From a virus, in IMG/VR virus record IMGVR_UViG_3300023096_000002, positions 6,894 through 70,893 of that record: a stretch of DNA of 64,000 nt; one strand, written 5' to 3'. The stretch's first letter is position 1. Each line of letters starts with the position of its first letter. Position numbers and translations under genes: made by a program. Below the pieces are notes generated by a model. That model was not told the DNA's origin, ran no database searches, and was given only the letters and a program-made list of their open reading frames with translations. Below are positions 16,665 to 62,508 of the stretch, piece by piece.

Positions 16665-18038
16665 TTAACCGGCCTGGAGGATACGTGCCGCTTCGCAGCA
16701 AGCGACGAACCCGCCATCTTCAGCGCCGAACTGGTACTTGACGCACCATGCGGAGCTGCCGCCAATGTACTGTTCCATGAACATCGGCTTCTTGTTGACA
16801 GTCATGTAGGCCATCGGCCAATTGCCAGCGGCGGCGATGAAGCTGCCGGCGACGAATGGGTCTTCCACGGAGCCGAGCGTATTGTCTTCCGTCGGATCTG
16901 GAAGGCAATTGGAAATGCGCAGGCGGTTCGCGGCCGAAGTCGGGCTGAACGTGAGGTCGCCATCACCAAAGATGAAGCGGCCGTTCGCGTCGACGGCGGA
17001 GGCCAGATAACCGAACGTGTTCTGGTGCATGATCGGAACCACATCACCATATTCGATCGGGGCAGTGGAGAGGAAGCGACGGAAGTCAACGTGGTTGAAA
17101 GAACCGCCAGCTGTCTTCAGCTTGGGGAAGCAATCCGACTTCAGCCAGCCCTTCGGCTCTTCGATACCGTTGCCGGTGATGTTGACACGGTTGCGGTTGA
17201 TCCGGTGGGACCGCGCAGCCGCACGCATCATGAAGCCCAAAAGGTCGTAGTTGGCTTCATCGAGAACCTTCCGCTGGAAGCAGAAGACGCCGCGGAAGTC
17301 GAAGGTCTTTCCGTTGTTGTAAACGATGTTCCCTTCCGGACCGAGTTCAGCATCGCACTTGGCGTCGCAATCATAGCTGCCGATGGCGCCATAATCCTTG
17401 ACCTGCGGATACATGAACTTGCTCTTCGATACGGTGACCTGACCGTAGAGGTCGAGCAGGCTGGCGCATTCGATCGTGCAGTCCACTTCGATGCCGAGCA
17501 TTTCCGGGCTGAAGAAAGCAACGTCCAGGCTGGCAGCGTCGAAGGCCTTCTTCTCGCCGTCCGTGAAGGACTTGACGATACGAGCGCGGGTTTCCTTGCC
17601 GCCTTCAGCGACGAGCTTCCGGCAAGCCGAACGGTAATCGTCCATCTTGACCAGATTGTCGTTGTCGACGCGGAAGTCCGTTTCTTCGCCGCCCTTGAAG
17701 ACGTGAATGCGCTTCTGGAGTTCGATGGCCGCTTTACGGTCATGTTCCTTCAGGGAGGCTTCGTTCTGGAATGCCGGAGCGTCCAGTTCCTTCTTCAGCA
17801 TTTCCATCGAAGCAGTCAGTTCCTGGACAGCCGCAACAGTTTCGGCATATTCAGCAGCGTGCTTCTTGACAGCTTCGGAAAGTTCCTTGCTGGTGTTTTC
17901 AACGCCGTTGAACTGATTGGTCAGTGTCTTGTACTGATCATCAGCAGCGTCGCGAGCCTTCTTGGCGGCGGCAGCGATGTCATTCATTTCGCCGAGCATC
18001 TTTTCGATGCCAAGCTCTTCTGCGGTTTTCGTGTTCAT
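16665..18038 (-). CDS. Major capsid protein, HK97 fold with N-terminal delta domain
   Basis: Coiled-coil N-terminus; TGNGIEEPKGWL, MH..T..YL...VDANGRFIF and GNW..AY motifs; many Cys. Confidence 0.93.
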   Translation of the reverse strand: MNTKTAEELGIEKMLGEMNDIAAAAKKARDAADDQYKTLTNQFNGVENTSKELSEAVKKHAAEYAETVAAVQELTASMEMLKKELDAPAFQNEASLKEHDRKAAIELQKRIHVFKGGEETDFRVDNDNLVKMDDYRSACRKLVAEGGKETRARIVKSFTDGEKKAFDAASLDVAFFSPEMLGIEVDCTIECASLLDLYGQVTVSKSKFMYPQVKDYGAIGSYDCDAKCDAELGPEGNIVYNNGKTFDFRGVFCFQRKVLDEANYDLLGFMMRAAARSHRINRNRVNITGNGIEEPKGWLKSDCFPKLKTAGGSFNHVDFRRFLSTAPIEYGDVVPIMHQNTFGYLASAVDANGRFIFGDGDLTFSPTSAANRLRISNCLPDPTEDNTLGSVEDPFVAGSFIAAAGNWPMAYMTVNKKPMFMEQYIGGSSAWCVKYQFGAEDGGFVACCEAARILQAG

Positions 18039-18063: not shown

Positions 18064-18882
18064 TCAGGTGAAGGCTTTTTTCAAAGCCTCGATGTGGGAC
18101 TGCATTGCAGACATACTCTCCTTTGCCACCAAGGGCGTGGGCGTCGTCTTCTCCTCAACTTCCGGAGTTAAAGGAGACTTGCCGAACAGGTGAACGGCTG
18201 ATTTGACCTCCAGGGTGATCAGCCGTGCAGCGTTTCGGTTTTCAACCAGACCAGTAGCGATCAGGCGCTTTTCAAATTCAGCCAACGTAGCTGGCGGAAC
18301 TTCGAGATTGATATCGTCAATGGTCTCAGCATCCTTGCGGTTGAGCTCATTGACGGCGGACTTGACGAACTCCATGGTGCATTCCGTGTTCCCAGGGAAC
18401 GGCACGATGGAGACTTCAAATAGATCGCCACGCTGGATTTCAAGGTAAGTAAGATCCTTGTCATCCTTCTTGTAGCTGTAATCCTGGATCATGAACCCAA
18501 CAGAGAAGTTCATGCCGCCGCTGGACTTCGTCGCCTCGTAGCAATCCTTTGCATACGTGATGTTGAGGTTCAGCTGAGCTTCAATCCAAAGCCCGCCTTT
18601 GCGGTATTCCAGCTTCTCGATCGCGCCGCCAACCTTGTTCCAGTTGTGACCGATGAGCAGCTTGATACCCTTTGGACCTTGCAGACCGCGATCCTTGATA
18701 GCATCTGCGAATGCGCCGTTGAGGACGATATCGCGATATGTGTCAAGACCGGGAGTGCTGGCCCATCCGGCAACGAAGCCTTCCGGTTTGCCGTCGCCGA
18801 TAGCCTTCAACTCGAGCTCAGTAGCAGGAGTGAAGAACATATCCAGCGTGAACTTCTTAGCCTTTAGCTGGCTGACCGTCAT
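18064..18882 (-). CDS. HK97-type prohead protease
   Basis: GWAST, DIVLNGAF, LLIGH, FSVGF and LFEVSIVPFPGN motifs. Confidence 0.93.
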   Translation of the reverse strand: MTVSQLKAKKFTLDMFFTPATELELKAIGDGKPEGFVAGWASTPGLDTYRDIVLNGAFADAIKDRGLQGPKGIKLLIGHNWNKVGGAIEKLEYRKGGLWIEAQLNLNITYAKDCYEATKSSGGMNFSVGFMIQDYSYKKDDKDLTYLEIQRGDLFEVSIVPFPGNTECTMEFVKSAVNELNRKDAETIDDINLEVPPATLAEFEKRLIATGLVENRNAARLITLEVKSAVHLFGKSPLTPEVEEKTTPTPLVAKESMSAMQSHIEALKKAFT

Positions 18883-20165: not shown

Positions 20166-21370
20166 CAGAGCTGTATCCTTTTCATTCCGACCGCGTTGTT
20201 TTGACGAAGGTCTTCAGTTGCGTATCGGACAGCATCCCAGCCGTGGTTGTCCATGTCTTCAAGGACCGGCAAGGGTTTCTGACTTAGTGGGTCAACCTTC
20301 CAGCTATAGAGCCGCGCTTCCTCCTGCATGTGGACGCATTCAGGGTCGATGACGATCTCATAGCCTTGCAGCCAGTTCACGCCTGATTTCACGCTGCCCG
20401 GACCTTTAACTGAGCCTCTGACGTTGAACCGCCTCTTATTGAGGAAGTCGATTGTCATTGGCTGCGAGCTGTCAGCGGTGATTGGGTAGCGCCGCACTTC
20501 ACTGACTTCATCCATTGCGGATGGCATGTCGTCAAGCGGGATGTGACCGAACATTTCCTGCGCGATGTAAATCTGGCGTGTTCTCTCGAGCACGTAGAGT
20601 TTCACCAAAGCGCTAGGGTCTCGGCTGAAACCAAAGTCCATGCCGAACCGTGGCATGTCATATTCGCTGGTGTTGAGACGGCCGACGCGCCAATTGGTGA
20701 AGACGCGGCTTTCGTTCATCTCATCGTAGTCACCCAACCAGACATGCTTAAAGCGCTTCAGATTGGAACGCTTCATACGCTCCATGTCGGAGGCCATTTC
20801 GCCGTGATAGAACCAAGGATTATCCTCGATACCGACACGCTGGATGTAAGCATCCTCCGGCGGGAAAGCCCCACGGAAGAAGTCGTCGATTGGGTCTTCA
20901 GGACTTACCGGGTTCCACGTACACCATATCTCGGAGCCGGGTTTACGGATGGTCGGGACGAGAAGCTCCCATGAACGTGCCTTCACGTTACGAGCTTCTT
21001 CGATCCAAAATATGTCAATATCGTCCAGCGATTTGATGCTGTCGATGTTGCGTTCAAGACCGACGAACGTGAAGCGACTGTCCAAGCGCCGATGGACGAT
21101 CTCGTTGTGCGTGACGTTGTAGTCACGCTGCAACCCTAGCTCTTTGATACGGCCTTCAATGGTAGACTTAGCGGAGTCACGAATTGAGTTCTGGAACTGA
21201 CGTCCGCAGACAATACGTGTCGGCTTTTGGCTGGAGATGACACTCAGGGCAAGACTTACTGACCGCGACTTAGCGGAACCGCGCCCGCCGAACAGCGCCT
21301 TGTAACGATAGGGCTGGAAGAGCGGACCGAATTTCTCGCCCAACGAAAGTTGGACAACCCGGTCCGCCAT
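20165..21370 (-). CDS. terL: Terminase large subunit (PBSX family)
   Basis: GGRGSAKS Walker A, WIEEA Walker B, TWNP, GMDFGF and NHGWDAVRYA motifs. Confidence 0.95.
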   Translation of the reverse strand: MADRVVQLSLGEKFGPLFQPYRYKALFGGRGSAKSRSVSLALSVISSQKPTRIVCGRQFQNSIRDSAKSTIEGRIKELGLQRDYNVTHNEIVHRRLDSRFTFVGLERNIDSIKSLDDIDIFWIEEARNVKARSWELLVPTIRKPGSEIWCTWNPVSPEDPIDDFFRGAFPPEDAYIQRVGIEDNPWFYHGEMASDMERMKRSNLKRFKHVWLGDYDEMNESRVFTNWRVGRLNTSEYDMPRFGMDFGFSRDPSALVKLYVLERTRQIYIAQEMFGHIPLDDMPSAMDEVSEVRRYPITADSSQPMTIDFLNKRRFNVRGSVKGPGSVKSGVNWLQGYEIVIDPECVHMQEEARLYSWKVDPLSQKPLPVLEDMDNHGWDAVRYATEDLRQNNAVGMKRIQL

Positions 21371-27378: not shown

Positions 27379-28023
27379 TCATGCATACGCGACTTGCGAG
27401 GCGATTGCAAGAGGTTTCTTCGGCGCCATCGTCAGAAAACTTAACGGGACTTTGAGCGGCAAATCCTTCCCAAAAAGGCTGACCTGGACGGTAGCGAGGA
27501 CTCCATCAATAGCCAAGACCGGAACCTCATTCCCCTTCCATTCACCGCGAACAATCATCACGCGACTGCCCTTCTTGATCGACTTGTCGATGATTGGCGC
27601 GTGAGGCATGAGGTCGTTTTCAAGGATACGGAGCTCCGTGATAAGCGCTTCCGGAATGCGCACCGGGACGTCATGATTGCAGAGCACATTATAATATCCG
27701 CGCTGCCCGCGTATGTGATACCATTGCTGATCCGTACCGAGCATCTTGACGAAGATGTATCCTCCCAGCATCGGCCTGCGCACGACGACTTCTTGCTCTT
27801 TCGGCGGGAGTTTGCGCCTCCCTCGCGGGCGCGTAATATATTGGTCCATCGGGCAGTAGGCGACGATCTCCAGGGATGGGTCCTGTTGCGTCATCATCTC
27901 ACCCAAAAGGTTGATTGCTTGGGTGACCTCCACCTGGAGCTTACCAAAAGTGGAGACGCAGAACCATTGCGGAGTTGCGTGTATGGGGTATAATCCGGTA
28001 TTAATCCAGCTGAGTGTGCTCAC
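27379..28023 (-). CDS. NusG/RfaH-family transcription antitermination factor (NGN + KOW)
   Basis: WFCVST, AYCP and RPMLGGYIFV (NGN domain); KKGSRVMIVRGEWKG and VSLFGK (KOW domain). Confidence 0.85.
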   Translation of the reverse strand: MSTLSWINTGLYPIHATPQWFCVSTFGKLQVEVTQAINLLGEMMTQQDPSLEIVAYCPMDQYITRPRGRRKLPPKEQEVVVRRPMLGGYIFVKMLGTDQQWYHIRGQRGYYNVLCNHDVPVRIPEALITELRILENDLMPHAPIIDKSIKKGSRVMIVRGEWKGNEVPVLAIDGVLATVQVSLFGKDLPLKVPLSFLTMAPKKPLAIASQVAYA

Positions 28024-28863: not shown

Positions 28864-29810
28864 GGCAAAGTCGGTTTGTAATTGGTGATGGTCCGTGGAT
28901 CGTTTTAATCGGTAAAATTCGGTCGCGCTTAGGGAGGGGGAGGGGCGATCGCCCTACGAGGTCGCCGCCGTCAGTCAGGGGGGGTGCATGGTTAACAAAT
29001 CGTTCAGTCAAATGGTTAATGAGAGGTGTGCGTTAACCATATCTCTTAATGAACTGTTAACTATCAGGGGGCTTGAGTATCATTTAGCTAAAACTTTACA
29101 CAACTGTTAGCTGTTCATTAACCTTGAACTATACTGCAGGATGCTATTGAAGTAGTTTGAACTACTTGAACAATACTTATCAACACTGCTATCCCATTGT
29201 AAACGTTAGGTTATTTGTCCGTTGACGTTGGCATATGCTGCATAACATGCATTATGGAACTATTTGATAAAGTTTTAATCTAATTTTAATGGTTGAACAG
29301 TGTTACTCCAGCCATGCAAGCTCACTGTCAGGCGGTAGTTTCCGGGTGCTATGAGGGTACGGTCCATGGACTGGTGCGCTCTGGCGGGCTTCTGTGTGCC
29401 TTGTAGGGGTGATCGGAAGGCTTGCTGGACAGGGGATTGGCGACGGTCCTCGCGCAAAGAATAATTACCGTTTCTCGTTGAGAGCAGTGGTTGTTTACAC
29501 GCTACAGGTTGCATGCCTTCGTTAGCATTGACTAATAGATAACCAAAAAAGGCGATATCTTCTGCGGACATGGTTGTATTTGCCGCATGGCTGCAACCGT
29601 TCAGGTTTTATTTATATTACTACCTTACTTACCTCCCCCGTGAAGGAATTTATTATAATTAGATATTTCTATACTTTGGGTAAGGTTAAACCCAATAAAA
29701 ACTTTGAACGCGTGTACTTGGCACTGAGTACTTGCAACTAACAGTATACTTGAGAGCATGATTTTAGCCCCAACTCTCGCCTTTTTTGGACCCAAGGACC
29801 ACGGACAATG

Positions 29811-29849
29811 AACCCATAACCCAAAACCCCAAACCATACCCCTAACCAC
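29811..29849 (-). repeat. Telomere-like G-tract repeat
   Basis: Minus strand reads TGTGGTTAGGGGTATGGTTTGGGGTTTTGGGTTATGGGTT. Confidence 0.55.
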
Positions 29850-29966
29850 AAAGCAAAACGCGCTAGGGAGCCCATTAAAGCCCCGCCAGCGCGTTCCACA
29901 TACCCTACCCTAGTAGCCCCTTACCCAACGCCAAAGAACGCGCCAGCGGCCTCCTATGGCAGCGTC

Positions 29967-30182
29967 CTAATATTCACCAACAATCATGTATACCGCACTA
30001 CAAAACCTCCCGTCATGCCAGTCCAGCGCTACACCATTCCAGCAATACTGTTCGCTTAGGCCATAGGCAAAGGACCGCGCTCCCTCGCTCCGGTATAGTT
30101 CAACCGTGCTCCAAGCCCCGCCAGCATATGAGCAAGCGACTGCTAATGTAATTGCACACCATTTTACTAGTCTATTAGTCAT
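29967..30182 (-). CDS. Small exported/membrane early protein
   Basis: Signal-like N-terminus; Cys pair. Confidence 0.5.
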   Translation of the reverse strand: MTNRLVKWCAITLAVACSYAGGAWSTVELYRSEGARSFAYGLSEQYCWNGVALDWHDGRFCSAVYMIVGEY

Positions 30183-30252
30183 AATTTACCCCAAAGTTAA
30201 AACGAGTTTAAAATTTTACACACAACCGTGAGCAAGTGAACCCTAATACAAC

Positions 30253-30627
30253 CTATACGTCATCACCCCATTGCCGCCGGACCGCCCTCAGCCTCTCCGT
30301 TTGCAGCGCCTTCCGCTCCTTCGGTAACCACACTTTGCTAATGAATATAGTTAACTTCTCGTTAACATCAATTTCCGCATCACAATCGCAGGCCTGCAAC
30401 TGTTCAAGCAAAGGTTGCAGCATATCCTCCCGTGCAACCGTTATCACTGGGTTAACCCATTTAACGTCCACTCCCAAGGTATAGCCCGCCAGCGTTACCG
30501 CTTTCTTAATACGTTGCGTTCCGCTCCGCCGCGTTGCGCCGGGTTCATGCCGCCTACCGCTCATGGGCATGCGGGCAATCTTGTCGCTCCTAACCCGACG
30601 GGTGGAGTTTTCACTACGCTTTGTCAT
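30253..30627 (-). CDS. Basic hypothetical early protein
   Basis: ORF track; overlaps the upstream gene. Confidence 0.5.
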   Translation of the reverse strand: MTKRSENSTRRVRSDKIARMPMSGRRHEPGATRRSGTQRIKKAVTLAGYTLGVDVKWVNPVITVAREDMLQPLLEQLQACDCDAEIDVNEKLTIFISKVWLPKERKALQTERLRAVRRQWGDDV

Positions 30628-30814
30628 TTCTATACTTCCCGTTCATTATTTTATGCACCGCTTTATTGTACTGACTGCGACTTATATTGCCGTTGCGGTA
30701 TTCCGTAGTTAGCTCCGCATGAGTTTTACATCGCTCAAGTATCGCTGCATACTCTTCAACTGTCGCATCATTTACTTGCTGTTTCTTTTTCACAGTAACC
30801 CTCTTCAACGCCAA
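30614..30814 (-). CDS. Hypothetical early protein
   Basis: ORF track. Confidence 0.45.
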   Translation of the reverse strand: MALKRVTVKKKQQVNDATVEEYAAILERCKTHAELTTEYRNGNISRSQYNKAVHKIMNGKYRNDKA

Positions 30815-30863
30815 TAGCGGGCCAGTATAAACCAGCCCGCTCCCAACAACAACACGCTACACT

Positions 30864-31070
30864 TCAACGGTATGCTTCACTCCGCAAGCAAGTCAACAAC
30901 CGCCAATCCGCCGGTATGACCGCGCCCTTGAACGCTGCAGTACAATCATCACCGCTCCCGGCAATATATACTTCACCTGTCCAAGTAACGGCAAACAAGT
31001 CAACATTGGTATGCAACGGGGTCGCCCCGACCAGCCCTGCCATGAGCGCGATAGTTAAAGTTTTAATCAT
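30864..31070 (-). CDS. Small secreted early protein
   Basis: Likely start MIKTLTIALMAGLVGA (signal peptide); 2 Cys. Confidence 0.55.
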   Translation of the reverse strand: MIKTLTIALMAGLVGATPLHTNVDLFAVTWTGEVYIAGSGDDCTAAFKGAVIPADWRLLTCLRSEAYR

Positions 31071-31338
31071 TGGTAATGCTCCAGCTAAAATGCCGCTCGC
31101 CTTTTGGTCCAAGCGTGTAACCCCTGTTATACCCCTGCTCCCGCACGAACGCCTTAGCTTCCGCCACGGTTGCACACTCCGGACTTGCATACAAATCCGC
31201 GTATGGTGCCGACGGGTGGCTTTCCAGACCGTAATACCCCGCAACCTCCGCAAGCCATGCCCTATAGCTGGCGTCCGTTACCGGCTCCGGCGGGCGCTTT
31301 GGGTAGGCGTCCACATACCGCACAAAAGCCTTAACCAT
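31063..31338 (-). CDS. Hypothetical early protein
   Basis: Likely start MVKAFVRY; overlaps neighbours. Confidence 0.55.
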   Translation of the reverse strand: MVKAFVRYVDAYPKRPPEPVTDASYRAWLAEVAGYYGLESHPSAPYADLYASPECATVAEAKAFVREQGYNRGYTLGPKGERHFSWSITND

Positions 31339-31552
31339 TGATTTGTGCCTTTTCAACTTCGCTCAGCGCCAGCATGTCCGGCGCTTGCAATTCAACAATA
31401 TACTTAACTCCGGGGTTTTCACCTTGCGGGACAAATCCCAGCGCAGGCAATTCGCACAAATATTCAAAAGCGGCGTCCGCGTCGGCAAACGGACCAATAT
31501 AGGCGGTTTCAAGGTTAAGCTTGCCGTGCTCGCGGAAAATGACCATATGCAT
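31331..31552 (-). CDS. Hypothetical early protein (IGPF motif)
   Basis: AAGGA upstream; coupled to neighbours. Confidence 0.55.
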   Translation of the reverse strand: MHMVIFREHGKLNLETAYIGPFADADAAFEYLCELPALGFVPQGENPGVKYIVELQAPDMLALSEVEKAQING

Positions 31553-31570
31553 TTTAACTAATCCTTTTGG

Positions 31571-31798
31571 TTAATTGTCAATCGCCGCCAGCTGTTTTAG
31601 CAAGTCGGCACGTTCAGCCATGACGGCCTCATGGCGCGTGGTATTGTTCGCCAAATGGCGGGTCAGCATTTCGCGGGCAATGTCAATGGGGTTCGCCATG
31701 CCGCTACGAAACAGGAAAATGACCACGGCCTTTTCATGGCCTATAAGCTCGCGCTTAATTACGGTTTCAACCTCAGCCTTAATATTAATCGCGCTCAT
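31571..31798 (-). CDS. Hypothetical early protein
   Basis: AGGAGG RBS. Confidence 0.6.
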   Translation of the reverse strand: MSAINIKAEVETVIKRELIGHEKAVVIFLFRSGMANPIDIAREMLTRHLANNTTRHEAVMAERADLLKQLAAIDN

Positions 31799-31887
31799 TA
31801 TTTTGCCTCCTTGCGGCGTTTCAGCTCAGCAACCGCTTCCGGGGTCGCCATTTTAAGCAATACGTGGAGCGGCATGTTGGTCAGCAT
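31798..31887 (-). CDS. 29-aa peptide, not in ORF track
   Basis: MLTNMPLHVLLKMATPEAVAELKRRKEAK*; TAATG-coupled at both ends. Confidence 0.55.
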   Translation of the reverse strand: MLTNMPLHVLLKMATPEAVAELKRRKEAK

Positions 31888-32117
31888 TAGTTCAGCTCCC
31901 AACGTGCCCAAAGTGCATCCTGTATGTCAAGCGGCAAACTTTCAAACAATGCCGTCTGCTCCGGCTCATTGCCTGCCAGTGAGGCAAAGCGGTTTGCCAG
32001 CCATTCAATACTAGGAGTGTTGTCGCTTGTGGGCTTGCGCACAAAAGGACCGTGAGCGGCAGGGCGGGCCAGACCCGCGACATTTGCATCATGAACGTAG
32101 TTAGGGACTTTAGCCAT
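31887..32117 (-). CDS. Hypothetical early protein
   Basis: First gene of the small-gene cluster. Confidence 0.5.
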   Translation of the reverse strand: MAKVPNYVHDANVAGLARPAAHGPFVRKPTSDNTPSIEWLANRFASLAGNEPEQTALFESLPLDIQDALWARWELN

Positions 32118-32551
32118 ATCAGTGAACCCAGCGGCCTAATGCCGTGAGAGCAATATGCGCCTGATCCGTTAAGAAAACAATAACAAACTCATCGCAATTG
32201 TATATATCGTTGACTTATTCAGCATAGCCCCTATTCCCGCCATACAAGCCCGCCAGCGGACGTTTGGGTTTTCCGGTACTACCACCCGAAACTTCCCGCC
32301 GTCGCGATCTCGGTATTTTTTGGTTGTAAATGCCTTCCAAGTCCTGCAACCTATGGGACGTTATGCCCGTATCCCGCCATACAAGCCCAAGGGCGCGTTC
32401 CTCCTGTTTTCCATACCGTAGGCCATCCACACCCGACGAAGTCCGCTGGCGGGCTCCTGTATAGCCTGTTTTCCGGCGGGAGTGCGCCTGTATACCGCTG
32501 GCGGCACGGCTTGCCCTACCAAAGCCCGGTATGCGCCGCGCCACAAACGGC

Positions 32552-32577
32552 AAAAGGCGGGCTACAGGAGCCCGCCT
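32552..32577 (-). terminator. Intrinsic terminator
   Basis: AGGCGGGCT...AGCCCGCCT followed by TTT on the minus strand, after the DUF2786 gene. Confidence 0.7.
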
Positions 32578-32604
32578 AAGCGTTTTAAAGGTATGGTTGG
32601 CGGT

Positions 32605-33345
32605 TTATGCCGCGCTATCTGCAATGCGCGCCTGCCCTGCCGTCTGGCCCGCTACTTGCTTTTCCAGCTTTACGTTTGCGGCCGCATCCTTGTGGCGGTT
32701 TCCGCCAGCGCCAATCTTGCCGCTCTTTGCCGTGCCAAGGTTCAGGGTCGCAAGGTAGGCCTGCAACTCATCCACTTTGGTCAGGGCCATTTCACCCTTT
32801 TTGCCTTTTTGTTCCAAGTCGTGCGCCATGCGCTCCGCTACCAGCTTCGTCAGGCGGAAGCTCAGGGCATGGCTTACTTTCCGCGTATGCCGCTTGGCAT
32901 TCATGTCGCCGTCGGTTGCAAAAAGCTTGGCTCCTGCAGCCTTGCATTGTGCGACGATGAACGGATACATTTCACCGGCGGTAATGCGGGCACTTTCGCG
33001 GCCTACAAAGTCAAAGCGTACACCCGTCGGGGTTGTGGTCATCATGCAGGACGCGCCGTAGTAATTCGCAATCGCGTTAATCAGGTACTTCTTCCACGTT
33101 ACCGGGTTCTTGTTCGTGGCCCATGCTGGCGTCTGGCCCATTGGGTCTTCCTTGTCGCGTAGTTCCCAATGCTGCAGTTGGTATTTCGCCATCAGCTCCA
33201 TCGCCTTTGTCATAAAGGCTTCGGCTTCGTGTTCGTTGTCAGTGCCCGTTGCCTTGGCGAGCAGGGCGGCGATCTTTGCCTTCATGCCTTCGTCGGCGAC
33301 AGGAGCGGCATTTTCGGTCGTGGCAGTTGCGTTCTTTACGGTCAT
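32605..33345 (-). CDS. DUF2786-domain protein
   Basis: KIAALLAKATGTDNEHEAEAFMTKAMELMAKYQL. Confidence 0.8.
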   Translation of the reverse strand: MTVKNATATTENAAPVADEGMKAKIAALLAKATGTDNEHEAEAFMTKAMELMAKYQLQHWELRDKEDPMGQTPAWATNKNPVTWKKYLINAIANYYGASCMMTTTPTGVRFDFVGRESARITAGEMYPFIVAQCKAAGAKLFATDGDMNAKRHTRKVSHALSFRLTKLVAERMAHDLEQKGKKGEMALTKVDELQAYLATLNLGTAKSGKIGAGGNRHKDAAANVKLEKQVAGQTAGQARIADSAA

Positions 33346-33719
33346 TACAAAACCCCTTTTGGTGTGACCCCAGACCGTGATTGGCTGGTGTGACTATTAC
33401 TGTAGGAATATATTCGGGCCGTGCAACCGAATTCTCCGGTGCTGACGAGAATAATGATTTAATAAAATGCCGCATGATCCCGCCCTATATATAATGTGTA
33501 GGGATTTCCCGGCGCATGCTGCCCAAAAGGCCGACAGGGCCATATCCCGCCATACAAGCCCGTACACGGAGATCTCCGGTTTCCGGTACTCCTACCCGAA
33601 AAATCCGCTATCGCCGATCTACTTGTTTTCATTGGGATATTAGCCTCAGCTGATATTGCTCGGCGGCAGTATGGTTCACGGACCGTTAAACCTGCCGATT
33701 TGTCCGTTAACCAAGGACC

Positions 33720-33915
33720 GCGAGCCTTTGATTAAAATGCAACATTCCTGATCCAAGCCATTTGATTAAAATGCCACTGAGTTCAGTTTTACTCTCAATT
33801 ACCTAAAACTTTAATGAACCGCACTTAGTTCAAATTTGAAGTGCATTTTACTAAAGTTTTATGGACCGCACTTTAATAAAATGCGATCCACATTTAATTA
33901 AAATTTGAACTAATC
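33720..33915. repeat. AT-rich tract with short direct repeats
   Basis: TTTGATTAAAATGC x2, ACCGCACTT x2, AAATTTGAA x2. Confidence 0.6.
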
Positions 33916-36900: not shown

Positions 36901-39900
36901 CTTCGCAAGCACTTCAAGCCGAGCCCTCCGCATATAATCACGGACAGGGCTCGGTTTACTTTCCGCAGTCGCCGCCTGCATCCGCTTGGTGATATAATAC
37001 TTCCGCCAAGCGTTATCGCGCTGCTCATTGTTTTTGGTGTCGCGCTCCTTGAGGTACGCGTCCACCATTTCTTTATCGTCCATTCCGGATACGCTCCATT
37101 TCATCGTAAATGCGCTTGAACTCCGGAAACTCCGCTTCCATAGCCTCAGCGCGCCGCAGATAGGACGCTTGGCTCATGGCAGTGAACTCAGGCGTCCAGG
37201 ATGAATTACCGACTTTCATACGGAACCTGAACCGTCGATAATTCCGAAAGGCCGCTTGTTTCAGCTTCAAGCTGTCATCTTCATCGGACACCGTCATACC
37301 CCTCCGGATAGGGAATGCAACGAATGGTCACATCGGCAATGCCGCGCTCCACATCGCGCTCCGTCAACAGTCTGGCGTCAGCGTGCGCCTTCGCCTTGGA
37401 CCACGATTTAAGGTCGCTGGTAACGTTCCATTCACCCTTGCGAGTGAACACGCAAACCCAAACGCCTTGATCCCAATGCGCTGGTCTTGCACCTTCCTCC
37501 ATAGGAACCTCAATCACGGTCGGCCACTTCACATGCCGCTGATCGTGCTCCTTGAACCGCTCCACAAAGCGCATGATCTCGTGCTCGTGGTTGAAGCAGC
37601 TCACAAAGCTCCAGTCGCCATACTGTTCATACATGACCGCCTTAAAGGTCGTGCCGTTTCCCCCAAGGACCATGATCAAAACTCCGTTATAAGGAAGGGC
37701 CAATCAACTTCCATGAACACGTTGCTCATGACAGTGCCGCCCGGAACATAGGCATAAATCTTATCATCGCGGCAAACCAAGTGATGATTGATTATATCAA
37801 TAGAAATCCCACCTTCTGCGTGGAGCTCGCCGCCCTTGCCTAGCAGGCGAACGTGAATAGTCTTCTTCGTTACTTCGACCACGATAATCCCCTTTTCTGT
37901 CAGTTGTAGAACCGACGCCGTGCCGCGCTGCCGTGCTTGGCTCAGGCGGCGTGTACTCTTACAAGTGCATACTACGGAACAATTTGGCATTATACAACCT
38001 CAACTCCTCCATATGCGTCATCCAATAATGTACGGACCATGAAGCCTCAGAAGCCAAGTCCCAACCGAGGTATGAGATATCCGCAGCCTCGTCGAACCAG
38101 ACACAATCACCGCCCATGATCTCCTGCTTGGTGACGAAGCTCAGTCCCTGCCGGTATTCAAAAACCGGTTCCGTCCGCGCCATCAAATTGACCAGTCCAG
38201 TCATTACTTTTTGGGCCGTCCAATTCCATCTTTCGGCTTCATATGGACGCCAACTCTGAACCTCAGCCGACCGCGAGGAGTACCCTTCCGGAAGCTTCTG
38301 ATGTATCCGTCTTTGACGACCCACACTGTCAAGTTCGAAGGAAAGCCAACGCCTTTCGTTTTCCATATTATCTCCATCTGCTCCTTCAAACTAAGTGGCG
38401 GCAAACGTCTACGCCAACGGACGTAAATGCGGCCCGCCACGCGCTACAGCTCGTAGTAGGCGGGCAAGTACCGGCTACGGCCATGATAGCTGTGTATGGC
38501 CGTGTGCAACGGTCCTAGCACTGGTGCAGGGGCTGCTGGTGCCGTTGGCTTGCCCGCATAGGCTGGACCCTTTTTCTTGGTAGGCCATGCACGTTTATTG
38601 ACTTTGACTGGCACATCATAATGATGTATCATCATGCGGAGCTGACCTTCCGTATGCGCCGGGAATTCAACCCGCACAACCTCAAGAAGCTCAATCGCCG
38701 TAAGGTGAGTGTTCGCTCTAGCGATCGCGAGGATGCGCTGGTTCTTGATGCTCTTCGGCTGCAGATGCCGGAACCTACCTCGACCGCTCATCGGGTCACC
38801 ATCGCGCCGATAGTGCAAGCGACGCTCAGAGCGCTGAAGAACACCGAAGTCAGAATGAGCAGGATGGTGCGATCGTTGGCGGCGCGGAACCATTCCTTGA
38901 AACGCTCGGTGACCCCCTTTTCATTTGGCAGGATGACGATCTTACGCCCCTCCTCCATCGCCACTATCTGTTCCCGCTGGATCGACCGCTTGCTTTCCAG
39001 CACCTTGAGAACTTGCTCGTCGCCTGTCCCTATCACTTCGATGATCTGTATTGGCACTCCGCCTTCAGCGCGGTAAAACCGGTTCAGCGTATCCTTCTGC
39101 ATCGGAGTGACTGGCCTACGCCAACGGTTATCGTTCAGCCAGTTTTCAATATGCACCAGCTTCAGATAATTGGCAGCGACGTTGCCTTCATCACGCGGCA
39201 GGTTCGCACCGAACTGGATTGCCGGAACAATGCGATCGAGGAGCTCCTGCCAGCCGTATCCGTCGCCAGCGTATTCTTCCAGCCCGAGCTCACGGTCCAA
39301 CATGCCGGAGTGCAGGCACTCTACCTCAACTTCCCAATCGACGATCGGGTCCGGATGATGCCCAAAACGGTAGAGCGTTTTTGGGTCAATCACCGACTCA
39401 CTGCTCTGGCGAGCACCTGCCATGAAGTCTTTCATCTCATCATCAAATGTCATAAGAATACTTCCCCTTGAAATAATAGGGACCGCTAATGATCCCTGTG
39501 ATGTTGATAATATCATGCACATCAAGGACGCCCTTATCATAGAGCGTCCTCAACAGTTTCTTGTTCATGAGCGAGGCGGTGATATGCGTGAACATATCCT
39601 CCTCAGTCCAACGATAGGGCCAGCCGTTCGCCGCCTCAAAGCGTAGGAAATCTTCTTCAATTTCCATGACAGGCTCTTCAGATTTGACAATCACCGTCCG
39701 CATAATTGGATTATACTTATTCAGGAAGCTCTGAGCCTCCTTCAACAATGTGTTAGCTTCCGCAGGGGTCGCCAGCTTCAAAATCTGGAAGCATAGCTCT
39801 CTGATGATAGGAACGGCTTCCTCAAGCTCTCTGGCCATCTTCAGCCTCCACTTGATCAAGCTCAAGGTCCGAGATGCAGCCAGTGCGATCCCAGACCACC

Positions 39901-42900
39901 GAAACCCCCGGCACGCCCTTTTCAGTGGCGTACAGTTCATCAATGCTGCCAACCCATGTCTTGTCAGACTTGAGCTGAACGCGATCTCCGTCTTCAAGCT
40001 CTTTGCTCATCGGCCCACCTCCTGCGGATCGTGGTCGTAATACGATCGATCCAGTTTGCAAATTCCCATTCCGTCATCTTTTCGACGCCTTTAATATGCG
40101 CGTCAAGGAAAATGCCACCGCCACCGAGCTCTTCCTGCGTCTCCAGGATCGCGTTCAAATACTGGCGCTTATTCAACGGACTTCCTCCGCAGCTCGTCGC
40201 GCTCCTCGGTAGTATCCGGATCGCGTGTGCAGAGATTGTTCGGGACCAAGAACGGGCGATCTGGATGCGCGTCATACTCGCTGACTATGAACCACTTGTC
40301 ATGAATGCCCATAACGCGACCCCACCCTGCCGAGCGACCGTAGTGACCATCCCAATGGATGATATCGTTCGTGACGATAAGGTGACTGCTCACTTCAACC
40401 GACAGCTCGGGAGCGTTTACGGCGACTGTGACCAATGGCTTTTCACCATACCGCCCCTTGAGCACGACGACGCCAGCTTCATCCATTGCCTGATGAACCG
40501 TGAAGCTCAAGCGAACGACTTCGCCTTTGCGCACTTGGTTCATTTTCATTTTAGTATTCACAGTCAATTCCCCTTTACCATTGCAGCGATTTCATCGTAC
40601 AGCGCGATCCGCTCAAAGTGCAAAGTGCGGATCGTATCGTCGTCCATGTCTTTCAACTTGTCAGCCCACATTTCCGCTTCTTCGCCGAACATTGCGAGGT
40701 CATTTTCGCTCTCGCAATACTGTTCACAGAAATAATATGTCGCTTCCGACACAATCTTCGGCGGCGTCTGGAGCAATCTCAACAGAACGCCAGTGTCAAG
40801 GCCGAGGCCGGAATTGGTGCATGCGAACATGCCAGCGAGAATTGTTTTGTTGAGCGGTGCCATCACACAGCCCTCCGTGCGATCTCAGCTTCGATCATGA
40901 TGAGCAGCTGACGGGTTGCGATGACTGCACGCGCCTCAGTCATCTTGAGATTGCGAGTGCGCTTGCCGAGGAACTTTGCCGCTTGGCTGGTCTCATCGCT
41001 ATCTGCGAGCAGGCGCCTGGAACGATCCAGGACGGTGGTCAGCTCAGTGATGCTCATAGCGCGGATGCGCATTTCAGGTGTAGAGGCGTTCATTGTTCAA
41101 GCTCCCGTGCAGCGCTGTTCGCCATCATGGCAATCAGCTCATCAACTTTTGCAAGACTAAAGCCGGGCTTGAAAGTCATGGTGCGACTGACGCGACCATT
41201 ATCGAAGCTGAACTCAAAGCGGCCACCATTCTTGGACAAATCCTGAATGATAGCCTCCATTGTTTTCACGTAATCTCGCTTCATTGCAAACCCCTTTGCG
41301 TTGTAGTCCAGGAGCCAACCTTAACAGCTCCTGGACCTATTACAAGGACTTATACTTCAACTCCTGGAATACCTTCCAGGTCCCTGTGACCTTCAACAAC
41401 TTCGTCTTCGTCCACCTGCACGCTGACCCGCACAAGGTCAGTCCCCAACACTTCATCTTCCCGGAGCTGCGGCGCAAGGTCAATCTGCGGCGTATTGTCC
41501 GTCTGGATTTGCACCAACTGTTTCGGTTCAAACTGCTCCGGACCTTCGTTCGCCTGAAACTGGACGGTGAAGTGCAGCCAATGCCAGCCCGCGCTCGCAT
41601 AGCTCGGGGTATGTCGAATGAACCGTCCGCGTACAAGCCCGCGCGGCGCTGGCGTCCGTAGCTTACCAAAGCCATCGGTGTACTGCGGCGGCTGATAGCA
41701 GACTATGATTTCCATTTCTGGCTCATAGTTGGCAGGGTCCCACATTTTGCTGGAATGCACGCGACCTTGAAGCTGCGGCACGCCATTGCTCTCAAGATAG
41801 TTCCAGTCAATATGCAGACGGTCAGCGGCTTCCACTGCGCTGACGAAGATGAATTTCATTCGTTCAATAGTTTTCATTGGACCTCATCCTTGTTCTTTTC
41901 AAAGTATTCCTTGAGCTTCAAGAACACCGAGCGCTCAAGATAAATCTGACTACGGCCAGTCGTCAGCTTGACTTGGAAACTTTCAATTTCCGCATAAACG
42001 CCATCGCCGAGATATTCCTTGTTCATAAATCCAACCCCTCTATCTTCCCTTTGTTGACCATCTCCATTGTCAGTTCATGACCGTGCGTTAGTCCACTGAT
42101 GTAGACTGCCAGCACCGCTCCGTTCAAGCCAGCTCCCGGTCTACGCAGCAATGCATCACGGATGATGTCCTGCGCGATACCGCCCAAAACGGTCTTTTGT
42201 TTTTGGGTCAATTTGATATCGCGCAGGGCGTTTTTGAGCATTAGAGTTCCACCGCATGTTTGATGTGCCTTGCATGAACCTGACTGTCAGCAGGAATATG
42301 AACAATGATTTCTTTGTCCTCCGGCCGAACCGTATTGATCACAAGTACCACGGACCAAACGACCGTCCCATCCGACAGCTCGCTCTTCACAGTGTGAACC
42401 TGCATTAGCCTTCCTCGAAGCGGATAGTCATCGTGAGGTCACAAAGCACGGAAGACGGATCAGTCTCCAACGCCTCACGAATGATATTTGCCAGCGCCAT
42501 CCCAAGAACGTCAGGAGTGAACCCTTCTGGCAACTCAGCCTCAGCGCCGCCGAACCCGCCTGCGCTCATCACAGAAACAAGCATCTTCTTCATCGCTCAC
42601 ACCATGCGTTAATGTGATCCGCCAGCATCATGCCAGCGGTATCAATTTTCCATTCATAGCCGAACAGGCCACGACCATTGTGCAATTGTCCATCATCGCC
42701 AATCGGGCCGAGCGTTCTCGGATGAACCTTGACGCAAATCACTTTGCCGAAGTGATCCGGAACATTCCGCTGACGACCATCCCAGAACCGACCGGCAGCG
42801 CGGACAGCTTCCTTAGCATCATCCGCAGTATAGATGATGTCAGTGGAGTGTACTCCGCCATCGTGATTGCGATATTCGTAGATCGCTTCGTAAATGCTGA

Positions 42901-43510: not shown

Positions 43511-44482
43511 TTATGCGGCCAAAGCGTAGTCCGCCATTTCAAGAAGCTGGCGCTTGACGTCCAGTTTGATCTGACCCGTCTTGCCCATCCAGCTATTGTA
43601 GAGGCGAACGTCCTGGGACTTGCCAGCAACGTGGTCAGCCCAATGCGTTACGCCATTGAGCACGCCCCATCCGTTCCCCGGCGTCGCGCCCGGAGCATTG
43701 ACCACACTCGCAAGAACGTTGCCGAGTGTCTTGTTCTGAAGGCTCGGGTTCGTGAGCAGTGTCAGCACCTGAGCCTTCTCATGGCTTTCCGCGACCTGGA
43801 AGTTCTTCGCGAGGAACGTCATGGTGTCGATCGCATTCAGCTTCAGCTTTTGGAGTGCGATAGCTTCCTCCTCGTGGAGGGCGATCTGTTCCTGTGCGAG
43901 CTGGATGGTCTCCTTCGCCTTGCTCACGTCAAACGGCTTGGCGTGCGACTGGCGATATTCCGGGTTGTTGGCCTGACTAAGCGCCATCGCCAAAGTGTTC
44001 GCGCAGACCACGCGGACGGCCGTCGTGCGGGCAGAGTTGCTGACGCCGCTTTCATGCGGAACGATGAGCAGGATGTAGCCGTTGACCTGATCACGGCCGT
44101 TGAGAGTGAAGCCCTTCTTGATGTTGGCCAATCCCCAGACGACGCGCCCGCCATGCAGCGCACCGGCAGTTTCAAGTGTCGCGCCGCCTGTCTCGGTATA
44201 CTCCCGGAAAAACTCCATCGCATCCTTGTTCTGGAAGGGCTGCCAATCCTTGCCGACGACCGAGAAGATGGAATTGTCCGTGTCACGCATCAGCGCCATT
44301 TTGTTCGGGATCATGATCTTTTCATCACCGGCTTCCACGAACAACGGACGCTTGACAACGCCCCAATCGAGACCGGCAGCTACCAGCATCTCATCAACTG
44401 TGACACTGCCGACGACTTTATTGCCGAGACCGTGCCAAGGAGTTTCACCGGCAAAAGCCATTGTTTCCACTGCGTGAGCCAT
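43511..44482 (-). CDS. DUF932/DUF945 (LGT_TIGR03299-type) protein
   Basis: MAH.VETMAFAGETPWHGLG, AGLDW, ETAGALHGGRVVW and VRVVCANTL motifs. Confidence 0.9.
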   Translation of the reverse strand: MAHAVETMAFAGETPWHGLGNKVVGSVTVDEMLVAAGLDWGVVKRPLFVEAGDEKIMIPNKMALMRDTDNSIFSVVGKDWQPFQNKDAMEFFREYTETGGATLETAGALHGGRVVWGLANIKKGFTLNGRDQVNGYILLIVPHESGVSNSARTTAVRVVCANTLAMALSQANNPEYRQSHAKPFDVSKAKETIQLAQEQIALHEEEAIALQKLKLNAIDTMTFLAKNFQVAESHEKAQVLTLLTNPSLQNKTLGNVLASVVNAPGATPGNGWGVLNGVTHWADHVAGKSQDVRLYNSWMGKTGQIKLDVKRQLLEMADYALAA

Positions 44483-49606: not shown

Positions 49607-49670
49607 GTGCAACTTGAGCCAAAATGTGGACGGAAGGCCCGCCACAAGCTCATCAAAGGAAAACCCCAAC

Positions 49671-50534
49671 ATGGTTAAATCTCTTACCGCTGCTTCCAAG
49701 GCTGAACCCAAGGAAGTTGTCGTAACCGAACAAGATGCGAACGCTCTCGCATTGGCAGCTGAAGCGGAACTTTTCGACACTGGTGCTTCCACCGGCTTTG
49801 AAAACGTTACCGCCAAAGACCTGCTCATTCCGCGCATCACCATTCTGCAGGGCTTGAGCCCTCAGGTCACACGCGGCAAGCCGGAATTCAATCCGGACCT
49901 GCGTCCAGGCATGATCTATGACGTCGGCCTGACGGAAGTCTTCGAAGAAGCCATCCACGTTATTCCGGTTCACTTCTTCAAGCAGTGGCTTGAATGGGCT
50001 CCCCGGAACACTGGCAAGGGTCTCGTCGCTGTTCATGACAACGGCAGCATCCTGGATCAGACGGAAAAGGACGCCAAGAACAAGGACGTCCTGCCGAACG
50101 GGAACTACGTTTCCGAAACTGCGCAATTCTATGTCCTCAACCTGTCGGCACGGAACCGCAAGTCGTTCATCGCCATGACCAGCACGCAGCTCAAGAAGAG
50201 CCGGAGCTGGCTCACTCGCGCCCAGAACGTCATGATCCCTCGCGCTGATGGCACAGAGTTCCAGGCTCCGCTGTTCTACCATTCTTACATCCTCTCCACC
50301 GTGCCGGAAAGCAATGCCGAAGGCGCATGGGATGGCTGGAAGATCGAGACCGGTCCGAAGCTCACCGAGCTTGACAACTGGAAGCACATTCACAAGCTCA
50401 TCCTCGAGTTCCGCGAAAGCATCGACAAGGGCGAGGTCCAGTCGGACAAGTCGTCGCTTGAAGATGAAGTTTCCGGCGGTCGTGGCGGCGGCGGTCGCAG
50501 CGAAGGTCAGGCTGATACCGGGCAGGCAATGTAA
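49671..50534 (+). CDS. Phage ssDNA-binding/annealing-type protein
   Basis: DLLIPRITILQGLSPQV, WLEW and M.STQLKKSRSW motifs; acidic Gly-rich tail; start MVKSLT after AAGGA. Confidence 0.6.
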   Translation: MVKSLTAASKAEPKEVVVTEQDANALALAAEAELFDTGASTGFENVTAKDLLIPRITILQGLSPQVTRGKPEFNPDLRPGMIYDVGLTEVFEEAIHVIPVHFFKQWLEWAPRNTGKGLVAVHDNGSILDQTEKDAKNKDVLPNGNYVSETAQFYVLNLSARNRKSFIAMTSTQLKKSRSWLTRAQNVMIPRADGTEFQAPLFYHSYILSTVPESNAEGAWDGWKIETGPKLTELDNWKHIHKLILEFRESIDKGEVQSDKSSLEDEVSGGRGGGGRSEGQADTGQAM

Positions 50535-56421: not shown

Positions 56422-56777
56422 AGAAGGCAGGCACTCCACTCGCCAAACTCCTTGAAGAGTGCAAAGAAACCTGCCTCAAGGATGACGTGAAACGGTTCTA
56501 TTTCATCATGCCGGTCGGTATGATTTCTGAGCGAATGGATCGTGCCTTCGGTTTCAGCCAGTCCGGTGGCGTCGGTGTGATTTGTGCTCGCGGCTTGCGG
56601 CAGATGACATATGCCAAGCCATTGGACATGTCCATCGTGTTCGTCAATCAAGAAGATGATCCGGCGCAAACCTTTGCCGGTCTAAGGAATATTCGCGTTC
56701 ACATTTTCAATGAGTGCTCCACTACATGCGCTCAGAAATGGGAACTGGCTTATCGGCGCATAGGTGACCTCACATGA
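56418..56777 (+). CDS. Hypothetical protein
   Basis: ATGA-coupled on both sides. Confidence 0.5.
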   Translation: MKKAGTPLAKLLEECKETCLKDDVKRFYFIMPVGMISERMDRAFGFSQSGGVGVICARGLRQMTYAKPLDMSIVFVNQEDDPAQTFAGLRNIRVHIFNECSTTCAQKWELAYRRIGDLT

Positions 56778-62427: not shown

Positions 62428-62437
62428 TTAGCTGTGG

Positions 62438-62471
62438 CCCGCAAGGCAATTGACGTTGCTTTGCGGGCTTT
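62438..62471 (+). terminator. Hairpin after the primase-helicase gene
   Basis: CCCGCAAGGCAA...TTGCTTTGCGGG followed by CTTT. Confidence 0.5.
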
Positions 62472-62508
62472 GCCATGCCATAAATAACAGGTATTTAAAG
62501 GGACAAAG

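Follow-up and report, generated by a model that had tools for sequence, protein, structure and literature searches.

Sense-strand avoidance of the dinucleotide TC in one accessory-gene block is conserved in a clade of uncultured tailed phages

Phage T5 is said to keep its pre-early first-step-transfer region free of restriction sites, phage T7 reportedly carries EcoP15I sites in one orientation, and the DNA of Escherichia phage CAjan reportedly bears dPreQ0, a 7-deazaguanine, at GA. In the RNA of eukaryotic viruses, the dinucleotides CpG and UpA are avoided, the former being associated with ZAP and the latter with RNase L. Passages of PMC11618068 describe a bacterial defence enzyme, CmdT, that reads GA in single-stranded RNA, and passages of PMC6449724 (see also PMC5889632) assign to the thymidine hypermodification of phages M6, ViI and phiW-14 a TG/TC context, which restriction mapping implicates. 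Here, we analysed a window of 64,000 nucleotides (nt), corresponding to bases 6894-70893 of the 70,893-nt phage contig IMGVR_UViG_3300023096_000002, in which TC is purged from the sense strand of a single block of small accessory genes. The purge is maintained by selection, sense-specific, independent of the reading frame, conserved across a clade of four genomes and located in one motif-bounded block.

As in T5 and T7, a defined part of the genome, thought to be the first to act, would lack a sequence read by a host activity, and a bias of strand or orientation can protect; in contrast to those phages, what is avoided is neither a 5-6-bp site nor a palindrome but a mere dinucleotide, and only on each gene's sense strand. 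The likeness to CpG and ZAP, UpA and RNase L, and CmdT lies in the unit read, a two-letter step in single-stranded sense RNA, and such reading by an effector predicts a frame-independent, sense-specific purge of the kind observed here. Unlike in the eukaryotic-virus and CmdT cases, however, one regulon rather than the whole genome is purged. The relevant passages of the CmdTAC paper (PMC11618068) report no matching phage-genome purge, and a full-text literature search returned no published description of such dinucleotide purges.

In a scan of the plus strand, the maximum-likelihood low-GA segment spans positions 29,811-33,360 and holds 66 GA in 3,550 nt (log-likelihood gain of 94), versus approximately 200-240 expected, whereas 210 TC remain on the same strand. 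This bears out the original prediction, made from the letters of the window, of a strand-specific avoidance of GA on the plus strand, that is, of TC on the coding strand. The hand counts behind that prediction (6 GA in 32641-33240 and 43 GA in 43561-44160) are exact, and the GATC-free gap it pointed out, from 29411 to 32163, is with 2,752 nt the longest in the window, which contains 366 GATC. Its statement that the effect is gone by ~33.9 kb also holds, the end lying at ~33.4 kb. Between 29,810 and 33,258, there are 63 GA, compared to 240 predicted from the rate in the rest of the window (Poisson P = 3e-42) and 202 predicted from the neighbouring minus-strand genes (P = 2e-30). The ratios of observed to expected counts (o/e) for GA in the 600-nt windows starting at 30001-32401 are 0.34, 0.43, 0.33, 0.58 and 0.35, with every other window falling within 0.66-1.52. 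When the whole contig was divided into 1-kb windows, only 3 of the 70 had a GA o/e below 0.5 (0.38, 0.40 and 0.42), all of them contiguous, and the next lowest value was 0.69, making this the sole such zone in the ~70.8-kb genome. Sense-strand (minus) TC has an o/e of 0.37 in the zone versus 1.12-1.20 in other gene blocks. The depletion persists in a codon-resampled control, in which the amino acids were fixed and codons drawn anew 1000 times according to the codon usage of the genome: the nine zone genes curated for this purpose, which are our own readings of open reading frames (ORFs) with uncertain starts, contain 46 sense TC versus 140.5 expected (standard deviation 8.7; lowest of the 1000 draws, 107).

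The avoided unit is TC on the sense strand, at the level of the dinucleotide. When the zones of the four related genomes described below were pooled (30 kb), the 8 TC-containing trinucleotides were the 8 most depleted of all 64 (0.25-0.52; next, 0.73) and all 16 NTCN tetranucleotides were depleted. In the nine zone genes, observed and expected numbers of sense TC in the three codon phases are 6/16.9, 25/85.3 and 15/38.3, and third-position TC is purged as strongly as TC at other positions. Sense GA at synonymous opportunities stands at 0.96-1.03 of expectation in all four genomes, and the zone proteins contain 4.7% Asp and 7.0% Glu. Ser is encoded by 29 AGY versus 6 TCN codons, whereas ATC accounts for 4 of the 37 Ile, TTC for 7 of the 23 Phe, CTC for 2 of the 69 Leu and GTC for 12 of the 58 Val codons; as had been noted at the outset, other C-ending codons are spared and the pattern is not one of palindrome avoidance. 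The replacements are not simply T-ending codons: Val moves to GTA, Leu to CTG or TTG and Ser to AGY. The C and T content of the zone is unchanged, with the base after T being redistributed over T, A and G, which, together with the non-T-ending replacements, indicates selection against TC rather than plain C-to-T decay. Other o/e values are also shifted in the zone (TA, 0.99 vs 0.56-0.58 in the rest of the genome; GC, TT and AA, raised to 1.44, 1.37 and 1.31, respectively), as they are in the zones of 2 of the relatives (G002 and G003, see below), and these shifts are probably by-products of replacing the C after T.

Three further accounts of the pattern were rejected. A symmetric DNA-level purge hidden by coding constraints is at odds with the lack of depletion at synonymous GA opportunities; a tRNA- or codon-level cause, with the fact that codon junctions and non-coding DNA are also affected. 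Avoidance of pairing with the anti-Shine-Dalgarno sequence fails because all TC contexts are hit, not only CUCC-like ones, and the first ribosome-binding-site regions are TC-normal.

Megablast searches with the zone and with the region at 40-48 kb against 50,697 GenBank phage records yielded no match; the DUF2786 protein encoded by the first zone gene and the NusG-like protein of the late operon retrieved no relatives from viral_contigs, nor did the former from metagenome_contigs. Relatives were found only through the large terminase (TerL) and two-sequence alignments. Among named phages, Synechococcus phages Yong-L2-223 and Ssp-JY38 come nearest (TerL 50% identical). Three syntenic IMG/VR genomes, G001 (75,899 nt), G002 (75,275 nt) and G003 (74,699 nt), with TerL 67, 63 and 65% identical, respectively, are closer and carry the same replication and nucleotide block. 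Although the core proteins of the four clade genomes are only 40-70% identical, G001-G003 all carry, at the corresponding place on the map, a zone poor in sense TC that runs up to the AT-rich gap preceding the late operon. The zone is ~8 kb long in G001 (TC o/e 0.58-0.83), ~16 kb in G002 (0.33-0.37 near the gap and 0.55-0.7 farther off) and ~12.7 kb in G003 (0.3-0.6). In codon resampling, sense TC amounted to 0.58 of the expected number in G001 (z = -12), 0.44 in G002 (z = -19) and 0.40 in G003 (z = -15), with all three phases depleted, and sense GA to 1.03, 1.02 and 0.96, respectively; thus, the test on related phages called for by the original prediction found the purge in each of these three. 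Only 3 of the 9 curated zone genes have a homologue (E<1e-4) in the zone of another genome, so the purge survives gene turnover, and its conservation across four diverged genomes rules out recent acquisition from a donor sharing the bias. The outgroups Yong-L2-223 and G005 (TerL 52%), which share the structural module, have no such zone, no ThyX-like block and none of the inverted-repeat motif described below, and the DUF2786 gene of Yong-L2-223 is not purged. Among 16 loci fetched via a DUF932 gene, only the three belonging to clade members are depleted, and the other 13 are not.

The purge follows the direction of transcription. Near the AT-rich gap in G002 and G003, there are stretches with both TC and GA low on the plus strand, and these contain genes in both orientations, each avoiding TC on its own sense strand. 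The plus-strand gene 74276-74464 of G003, which is 62% identical to the minus-strand gene 31331-31552 of the window, contains a single TC (o/e 0.08), with GA at 0.81. Similarly, G003 72978-73493(+) has a TC o/e of 0.25, and its homologue G002 16890-17375(+) has TC at 0.44 and GA at 0.80. Genes of opposite orientation and unpurged synonymous GA therefore tie the purge to transcription, and a fixed DNA strand, exposed during replication, injection or resection, is excluded by the former.

The zone and its borders comprise the following features (window coordinates):

29811..33360, minus strand as sense, seen as GA depletion on the plus strand: TC-purged zone, the maximum-likelihood segment.
33458..33884, minus strand: regulatory region located upstream of the zone, in which GCATTTTAWTMAA occurs six times as a copy or half-site.
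32605..33345, minus strand: first zone gene, 246 codons, DUF2786 + DUF7168 protein (Pfam E values 1.4e-13 and 3.3e-8; PHROG 421).
32544..32576, minus strand: terminator-like hairpin after the DUF2786 stop codon, as read from the sequence (8-bp GC-rich stem, 5-nt loop, T-rich tail).
32118..32604, minus strand: non-coding spacer with repeats, 487 nt.
31887..32117, minus strand: gene for a 76-amino acid (aa) protein, with a homologue at G002 18230-18496.
31571..31798, minus strand: gene for a 75-aa protein, with an AAGGAGG ribosome-binding site.
31331..31552, minus strand: gene for a 73-aa protein, with the 62% identical G003 homologue on the opposite strand.
31063..31338, minus strand: gene for a ~91-aa protein, the start of which overlaps the preceding stop.
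30864..31070, minus strand: gene for a ~68-aa protein with a hydrophobic N-terminus.
30614..30793, minus strand: gene for a ~59-aa protein, with an uncertain GTG start.
30253..30627, minus strand: gene for a 124-aa protein with a basic N-terminus.
29967..30182, minus strand: gene for a 71-aa protein.
29738..29966, minus strand: G/T-rich tract at the zone end, with TC returning from ~29810.
29012..29740, separating the zone from the late operon: a 98-codon ORF flanked by two AT-rich gaps (29012-29274 and 29572-29740; GC content 0.36-0.37).

The zone forms the final 3.5 kb of a leftward block of small genes, set apart from the late operon by the AT-rich gaps at 29.0-29.7 kb and from the genes upstream by the AT-rich regulatory region at 33.4-33.9 kb. 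It contains nine to ten tightly packed minus-strand genes, several of which have overlapping stop and start codons; the first gene and the spacer are followed by eight or nine genes of 45-124 codons. The DUF2786 gene, which has homologues in the zones of G001-G003, carries 10 sense TC versus 31 expected. In the spacer, sense TC (14 vs 26.1 expected) and sense GA (22 vs 34.2) are both low, in agreement with the original prediction that intergenic DNA is depleted as well; in the AT-rich gaps, GA and TC are both somewhat low, on small counts. Two islands, 31980-32215 and 33259-33632, are TC-normal; they cover the leaders of the two leading genes together with their opening 30-45 codons, and the sequence presumed to be the leader of the first gene has 17 sense TC versus 15.8 expected. 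In the other zone genes, the few remaining TCs tend toward the first ~15 codons. Searches of Pfam, PHROGs and NCBIfam assigned no function to the zone proteins beyond DUF2786/DUF7168, and none of the 5 papers returned by a literature search on DUF2786 names this domain in its title or abstract. At the far end, positions 29800-29940 (minus strand) form a telomere-like G/T-rich tract with GGGG, GGGT and GGTT runs, and the tract possibly encodes a ~45-aa hydrophobic peptide. An independent assembly of the source run yielded a circular contig broken at 29234-29263, in the AT-rich gap beside the zone; the position of the break may be arbitrary.

All six matches to GCATTTTAWTMAA in the window lie within 33458..33884, compared to 0.41 expected in the window. 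Two of the copies form a near-perfect 8+1+8 inverted repeat at 33868-33884, GCATTTTA-n-TAAAATGC, and the zone begins just downstream of the cluster. The four clade genomes have 6, 3, 7 and 5 copies of the inverted-repeat motif, located at or within the zones, and in all four it clusters at the upstream zone edge (sites in G002, 32734-32784, 20286-20298 and 17770-17782; in G003, 11059-11096 and 72817), whereas the outgroups Yong-L2-223 and G005 have 0 copies and shuffled sequences a mean of 0-0.55. The inverted repeat probably serves the regulon as an operator or a promoter element. The regulatory region itself shows no shortage of sense TC (16 vs 15.0 expected). An element of ~62 nt is found upstream of both the first (33545-33606) and the second gene (32235-32296), the two copies being 77% identical and differing in the central part, with a partial third copy at 32356-32388 (repeat families D1 and D2); TC depletion resumes ~255-285 nt downstream of each full copy. 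An Rfam search of 28.5-34.5 kb returned a single sub-threshold snoRNA-like match and nothing for the ~62-nt element or the spacer. A consensus promoter and terminator scan was uninformative (11 promoter-like sites vs 5.9 expected; 3 terminator-like vs 7.5) and did not call the hairpin at 32544..32576.

The contig has a 127-nt terminal overlap, corresponding to a circularly assembled genome of ~70.8 kb. Its source run is labelled leaf-litter metagenome, and a second run, labelled soil metagenome, contains fragments 95-99% identical to it, with too few differences for a substitution pattern. Annotation with Pfam (97 ORFs) and PHROGs of ORFs of at least 44 codons identifies the genome as that of a contractile-tailed phage (myovirus), with the following layout around the zone:

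Leftward from 28.5 kb: late and structural genes, namely an RfaH/NusG-like factor, small and large terminase, portal, protease, capsid, sheath and baseplate.
27379-28020: RfaH/LoaP/NusG-like factor at the head of the late operon.
29.3-49.5 kb, leftward: block of small genes.
From 49.6 kb, rightward: replication and nucleotide block, with a Pam3 gp34-like protein, a gp33-like protein, an HD 5'-deoxynucleotidase, a divergent ThyX-like ORF, a nucleoside deoxyribosyltransferase-like protein, a PNKP-type phosphatase and an SDR protein, as well as a DnaQ-like exonuclease, a split DNA polymerase III alpha, a primase-helicase and an SNF2 helicase.
49614-50531: Pam3 gp34-like protein (Pfam PF23977).

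A counterpart of the RfaH/LoaP/NusG-like factor is annotated in Yong-L2-223. The ThyX-like ORF is divergent (Pfam Thy1 E 4.6e-6; NCBIfam thyX 22.7 bits vs a cut-off of 87.9). DNA polymerase III alpha, at 56774-60087, is encoded by two adjoining ORFs of 358 and 747 codons, and the split is kept in G001-G003. The Pam3 gp34-like protein has 611 homologues among phage contigs. A fold search with its AlphaFold model (pLDDT 83) gave weak matches (E>=7e-3), all to single-stranded DNA (ssDNA)-binding proteins with an OB fold, and, going by the model, it may be a phage ssDNA-binding protein rather than a modifying enzyme.

When 11 genomes were scanned without bias for windows with any dinucleotide far below the median of the respective genome, the scan flagged, besides the four clade genomes, zones of 1.7-2 kb in Serratia phage MyoSmar and Escherichia coli phage Bas98. 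In MyoSmar (NC_048800.1), the zone (~250-2000) lies inside the annotated direct terminal repeat of 3,559 nt and covers three rightward genes; in Bas98, it is found at record positions ~60,750-62,500. In both, o/e of CA and TG drops to 0.07-0.4 on both strands and CG is doubled (1.6-2.6). The two phages share with the genome analysed here only a distant DNA polymerase III alpha (36-38% identical), and their CA/TG zone resembles a sister case of the purge in which another dinucleotide is involved. A CA/TG-free zone is not mentioned in the passages on Wifcevirus of PMC11990801.

We propose, with a probability of roughly 40%, that the block is an early regulon, the mRNAs of which have been selected to lack UC and thereby escape a UC-directed RNA-cleaving or RNA-modifying activity. 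The zone would be transcribed as a discrete block: some ten small genes, most of them unique to the clade, would follow one another from the DUF2786 gene onward, behind operator-like repeats. It would constitute the first-expressed regulon, with immediate-early, host-takeover or anti-defence functions; that it is early we infer from its own operator-like control region, the small accessory genes and the analogy with MyoSmar. The target of selection would be the RNA itself, UC-poor transcripts escaping an endoribonuclease or an RNA-modifying enzyme that would come from the host or, less likely, from the phage, for long enough to yield proteins by which the remainder of the genome is protected. 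In the phage ORFs scanned against Pfam, PHROGs and NCBIfam, no nuclease or ADP-ribosyltransferase domain was found. A small cost would attach to each UC, and from this a graded purge (o/e 0.37-0.69) of variable length (3.5-16 kb) among relatives would follow. The pattern implies that some factor in the infected cell recognises or attacks precisely this step, in the transcripts of the block or in their DNA. Of the three conceivable targets, namely the RNA, the template strand and the non-template strand, RNA is favoured because it alone has precedents for a frame-independent, sense-only dinucleotide purge. Among the options raised in the original prediction, avoidance by early mRNAs of a UC-specific activity is the one that fits best with the sense rule and the independence of codon phase, its 'early' component resting on the arguments just given.

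Several observations weigh against an RNA-level cause. We know of no UC-specific RNase or RNA modifier. The two leading genes show no shortage of TC in their presumed 5' leaders and first 30-45 codons, a feature not predicted by an RNA-cleavage model; the spacer beyond the terminator-like hairpin is TC-poor, though possibly little transcribed. Finally, the lack of CA and TG on both strands in MyoSmar and Bas98 points to a DNA-level cause of the wider phenomenon. The broader form of the proposal, in which bacteria possess an antiviral activity reading bare UC in single-stranded phage transcripts and the clade writes its first-expressed regulon UC-poor in response, is possible but doubtful. Equally tentative is the notion that such an activity would be the prokaryotic counterpart of ZAP and CpG or RNase L and UpA, with purged pioneer regions being a recurrent phage strategy.

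The rival that survives best, although we consider it rather unlikely, is that virion DNA is modified at 5'-GA-3' (or at the partner step) and that genes transcribed from the incoming modified DNA keep their template strand free of GA, since the modified base would otherwise stall the host RNA polymerase or transcription-coupled repair. A sense-TC rule equally means a template strand without GA, and the zone co-occurs with the clade-specific nucleotide-metabolism block (HD 5'-deoxynucleotidase, ThyX-like, deoxyribosyltransferase-like, PNKP-type phosphatase, SDR and MazG). The MyoSmar zone lies inside an annotated terminal repeat, and the dinucleotides purged in the wider phage group, TC in the clade and TG/CA in MyoSmar and Bas98, recall the TG/TC context given in the passages of PMC6449724 for thymidine hypermodification. 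As in M6, ViI and phiW-14, with their modification derived from 5-hydroxymethyldeoxyuridine, the TC/GA step is singled out, and islands could be kept free of modification; a neighbouring phage group purges TG/CA. Unlike in these phages, the defining genes were not found here. The present purge is one-stranded, and Asp and Glu codons as well as synonymous GA are untouched. Were the modification to sit on the T of TC, as in the published cases, the purge would affect the non-template strand, the one least likely to matter for transcription. The leaders are not purged.

The modification genes that such a mechanism would call for were not recovered. No DpdA/Que protein, DNA methyltransferase, 5-HMUDK, aG/PT-PPlase or ThyA-type hydroxymethylase was detected with Pfam (97 ORFs) or PHROGs. 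Seven M6 proteins gave 0 matches at E<=1 against 4,186 six-frame fragments of eight genomes (G000-G003, G005, Yong-L2-223, MyoSmar and Bas98), including M6 gp54, gp51, gp55 and gp58, with aG/PT-pyrophosphorylase and ThyA-type dUMP hydroxymethyltransferase among the features sought; these were single-sequence phmmer searches, which remote homologues could escape. As for the Pam3 gp34-like protein, its model resembles an OB-fold ssDNA binder and not a modifying enzyme. The likeness to CAjan is that GA is a DNA modification context, but FolE and QueC/D/E, like DpdA, were not found in the 97 ORFs searched with Pfam, and the related outgroup Yong-L2-223, which does have a full 7-deazaguanine cluster (DpdA-like, FolE, QueD, QueC and QueE; record 38628-42154), has no GA/TC-poor zone. 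Template GA as a modification context, which we hold to be rather unlikely, is also one of the options of the original prediction.

Attack on the non-template strand is quite improbable. Here, a host enzyme acting at TC in ssDNA, such as a DarT-type ADP-ribosyltransferase, a TC-preferring cytosine deaminase or a nickase, would hit the displaced sense strand of the most transcribed early genes. TC is the preferred context of several ssDNA-acting enzymes, and the sense-strand rule is in line with this view. The genes of opposite orientation contradict the option of the original prediction that this strand is exposed as ssDNA, if one fixed strand is meant, and only a version confined to the non-template strand in the transcription bubble survives. 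The TNTC target of DarT2, suggested there, is not indicated: there is no TNTC-type enrichment, every NTCN being depleted, and T at position -2 precedes 10 of the 63 residual TCs, which is no shortage. The codon replacements are not the C-to-T footprint of a deaminase, and TC in the third position, where deamination would be silent, is depleted to the same degree as TC elsewhere. Moreover, replication exposes far more ssDNA than transcription does, and does so genome-wide.

Still less probable is avoidance of Rho, whereby transcripts made before the phage RfaH/NusG-like factor is available would avoid the YC-rich, C>G loading sites of this terminator. The mRNA of the zone is indeed G-rich and C-poor (G 0.308 and C 0.225, the strongest such skew in the genome), a NusG/RfaH-like gene heads the late operon, and UC is, according to passages of PMC12360218, one of the two YC dimers bound by Rho. 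However, no depletion is seen for CC, the second YC dimer (0.90-1.02 of expectation in the codon resampling of G001-G003), and its o/e in the zone is higher than elsewhere. The depletion extends equally to all contexts, with ATC and CTC the most affected, and is not confined to C-rich patches, while the leaders, the presumed loading place of Rho, are TC-normal. The absence of any function, with the zone being either foreign DNA that bears the signature of some other genome or the trace of neutral mutation, could account for the several other dinucleotides that differ (TA, 0.99 vs 0.57; GC, 1.44; TT, 1.37) but is highly improbable given the same purge at the same map position in four genomes with core proteins only 40-70% identical and with only 3 of the 9 curated zone genes having a homologue in the zone of another genome, its tracking of gene orientation, the unchanged composition and the fact that the other shifts are expected from a redistributed base after T.

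Sequence avoidance is a rare readout, obtained from the genome alone, of what an unseen enemy or chemical mark recognises, and the signal described here is unusually clean, involving one dinucleotide, one strand and one regulon in four genomes. To our knowledge, the purge matches no described restriction, modification or RNase specificity. If the cause lies at the level of RNA, it would point to soil bacteria having antiviral effectors of a new class that read dinucleotides, for which UC-rich versus UC-free reporters would provide a simple assay. If it lies at the level of DNA, a context-specific modification or a DNA-acting enzyme would have to tell the template from the non-template strand of pioneer genes. 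Should the tentative broader proposal of an antiviral reading of bare dinucleotides hold, purged regions could be read from sequence to find the specificities of unfamiliar defences, TC in the present case and CA/TG in the terminal repeat of Myosmarvirus- and Wifcevirus-type phages. In both cases, RNA or DNA, the purge flags the pioneer genes of this uncultured phage clade, and the approximately ten small genes per genome that it singles out are prime candidates for host-takeover or anti-defence functions.

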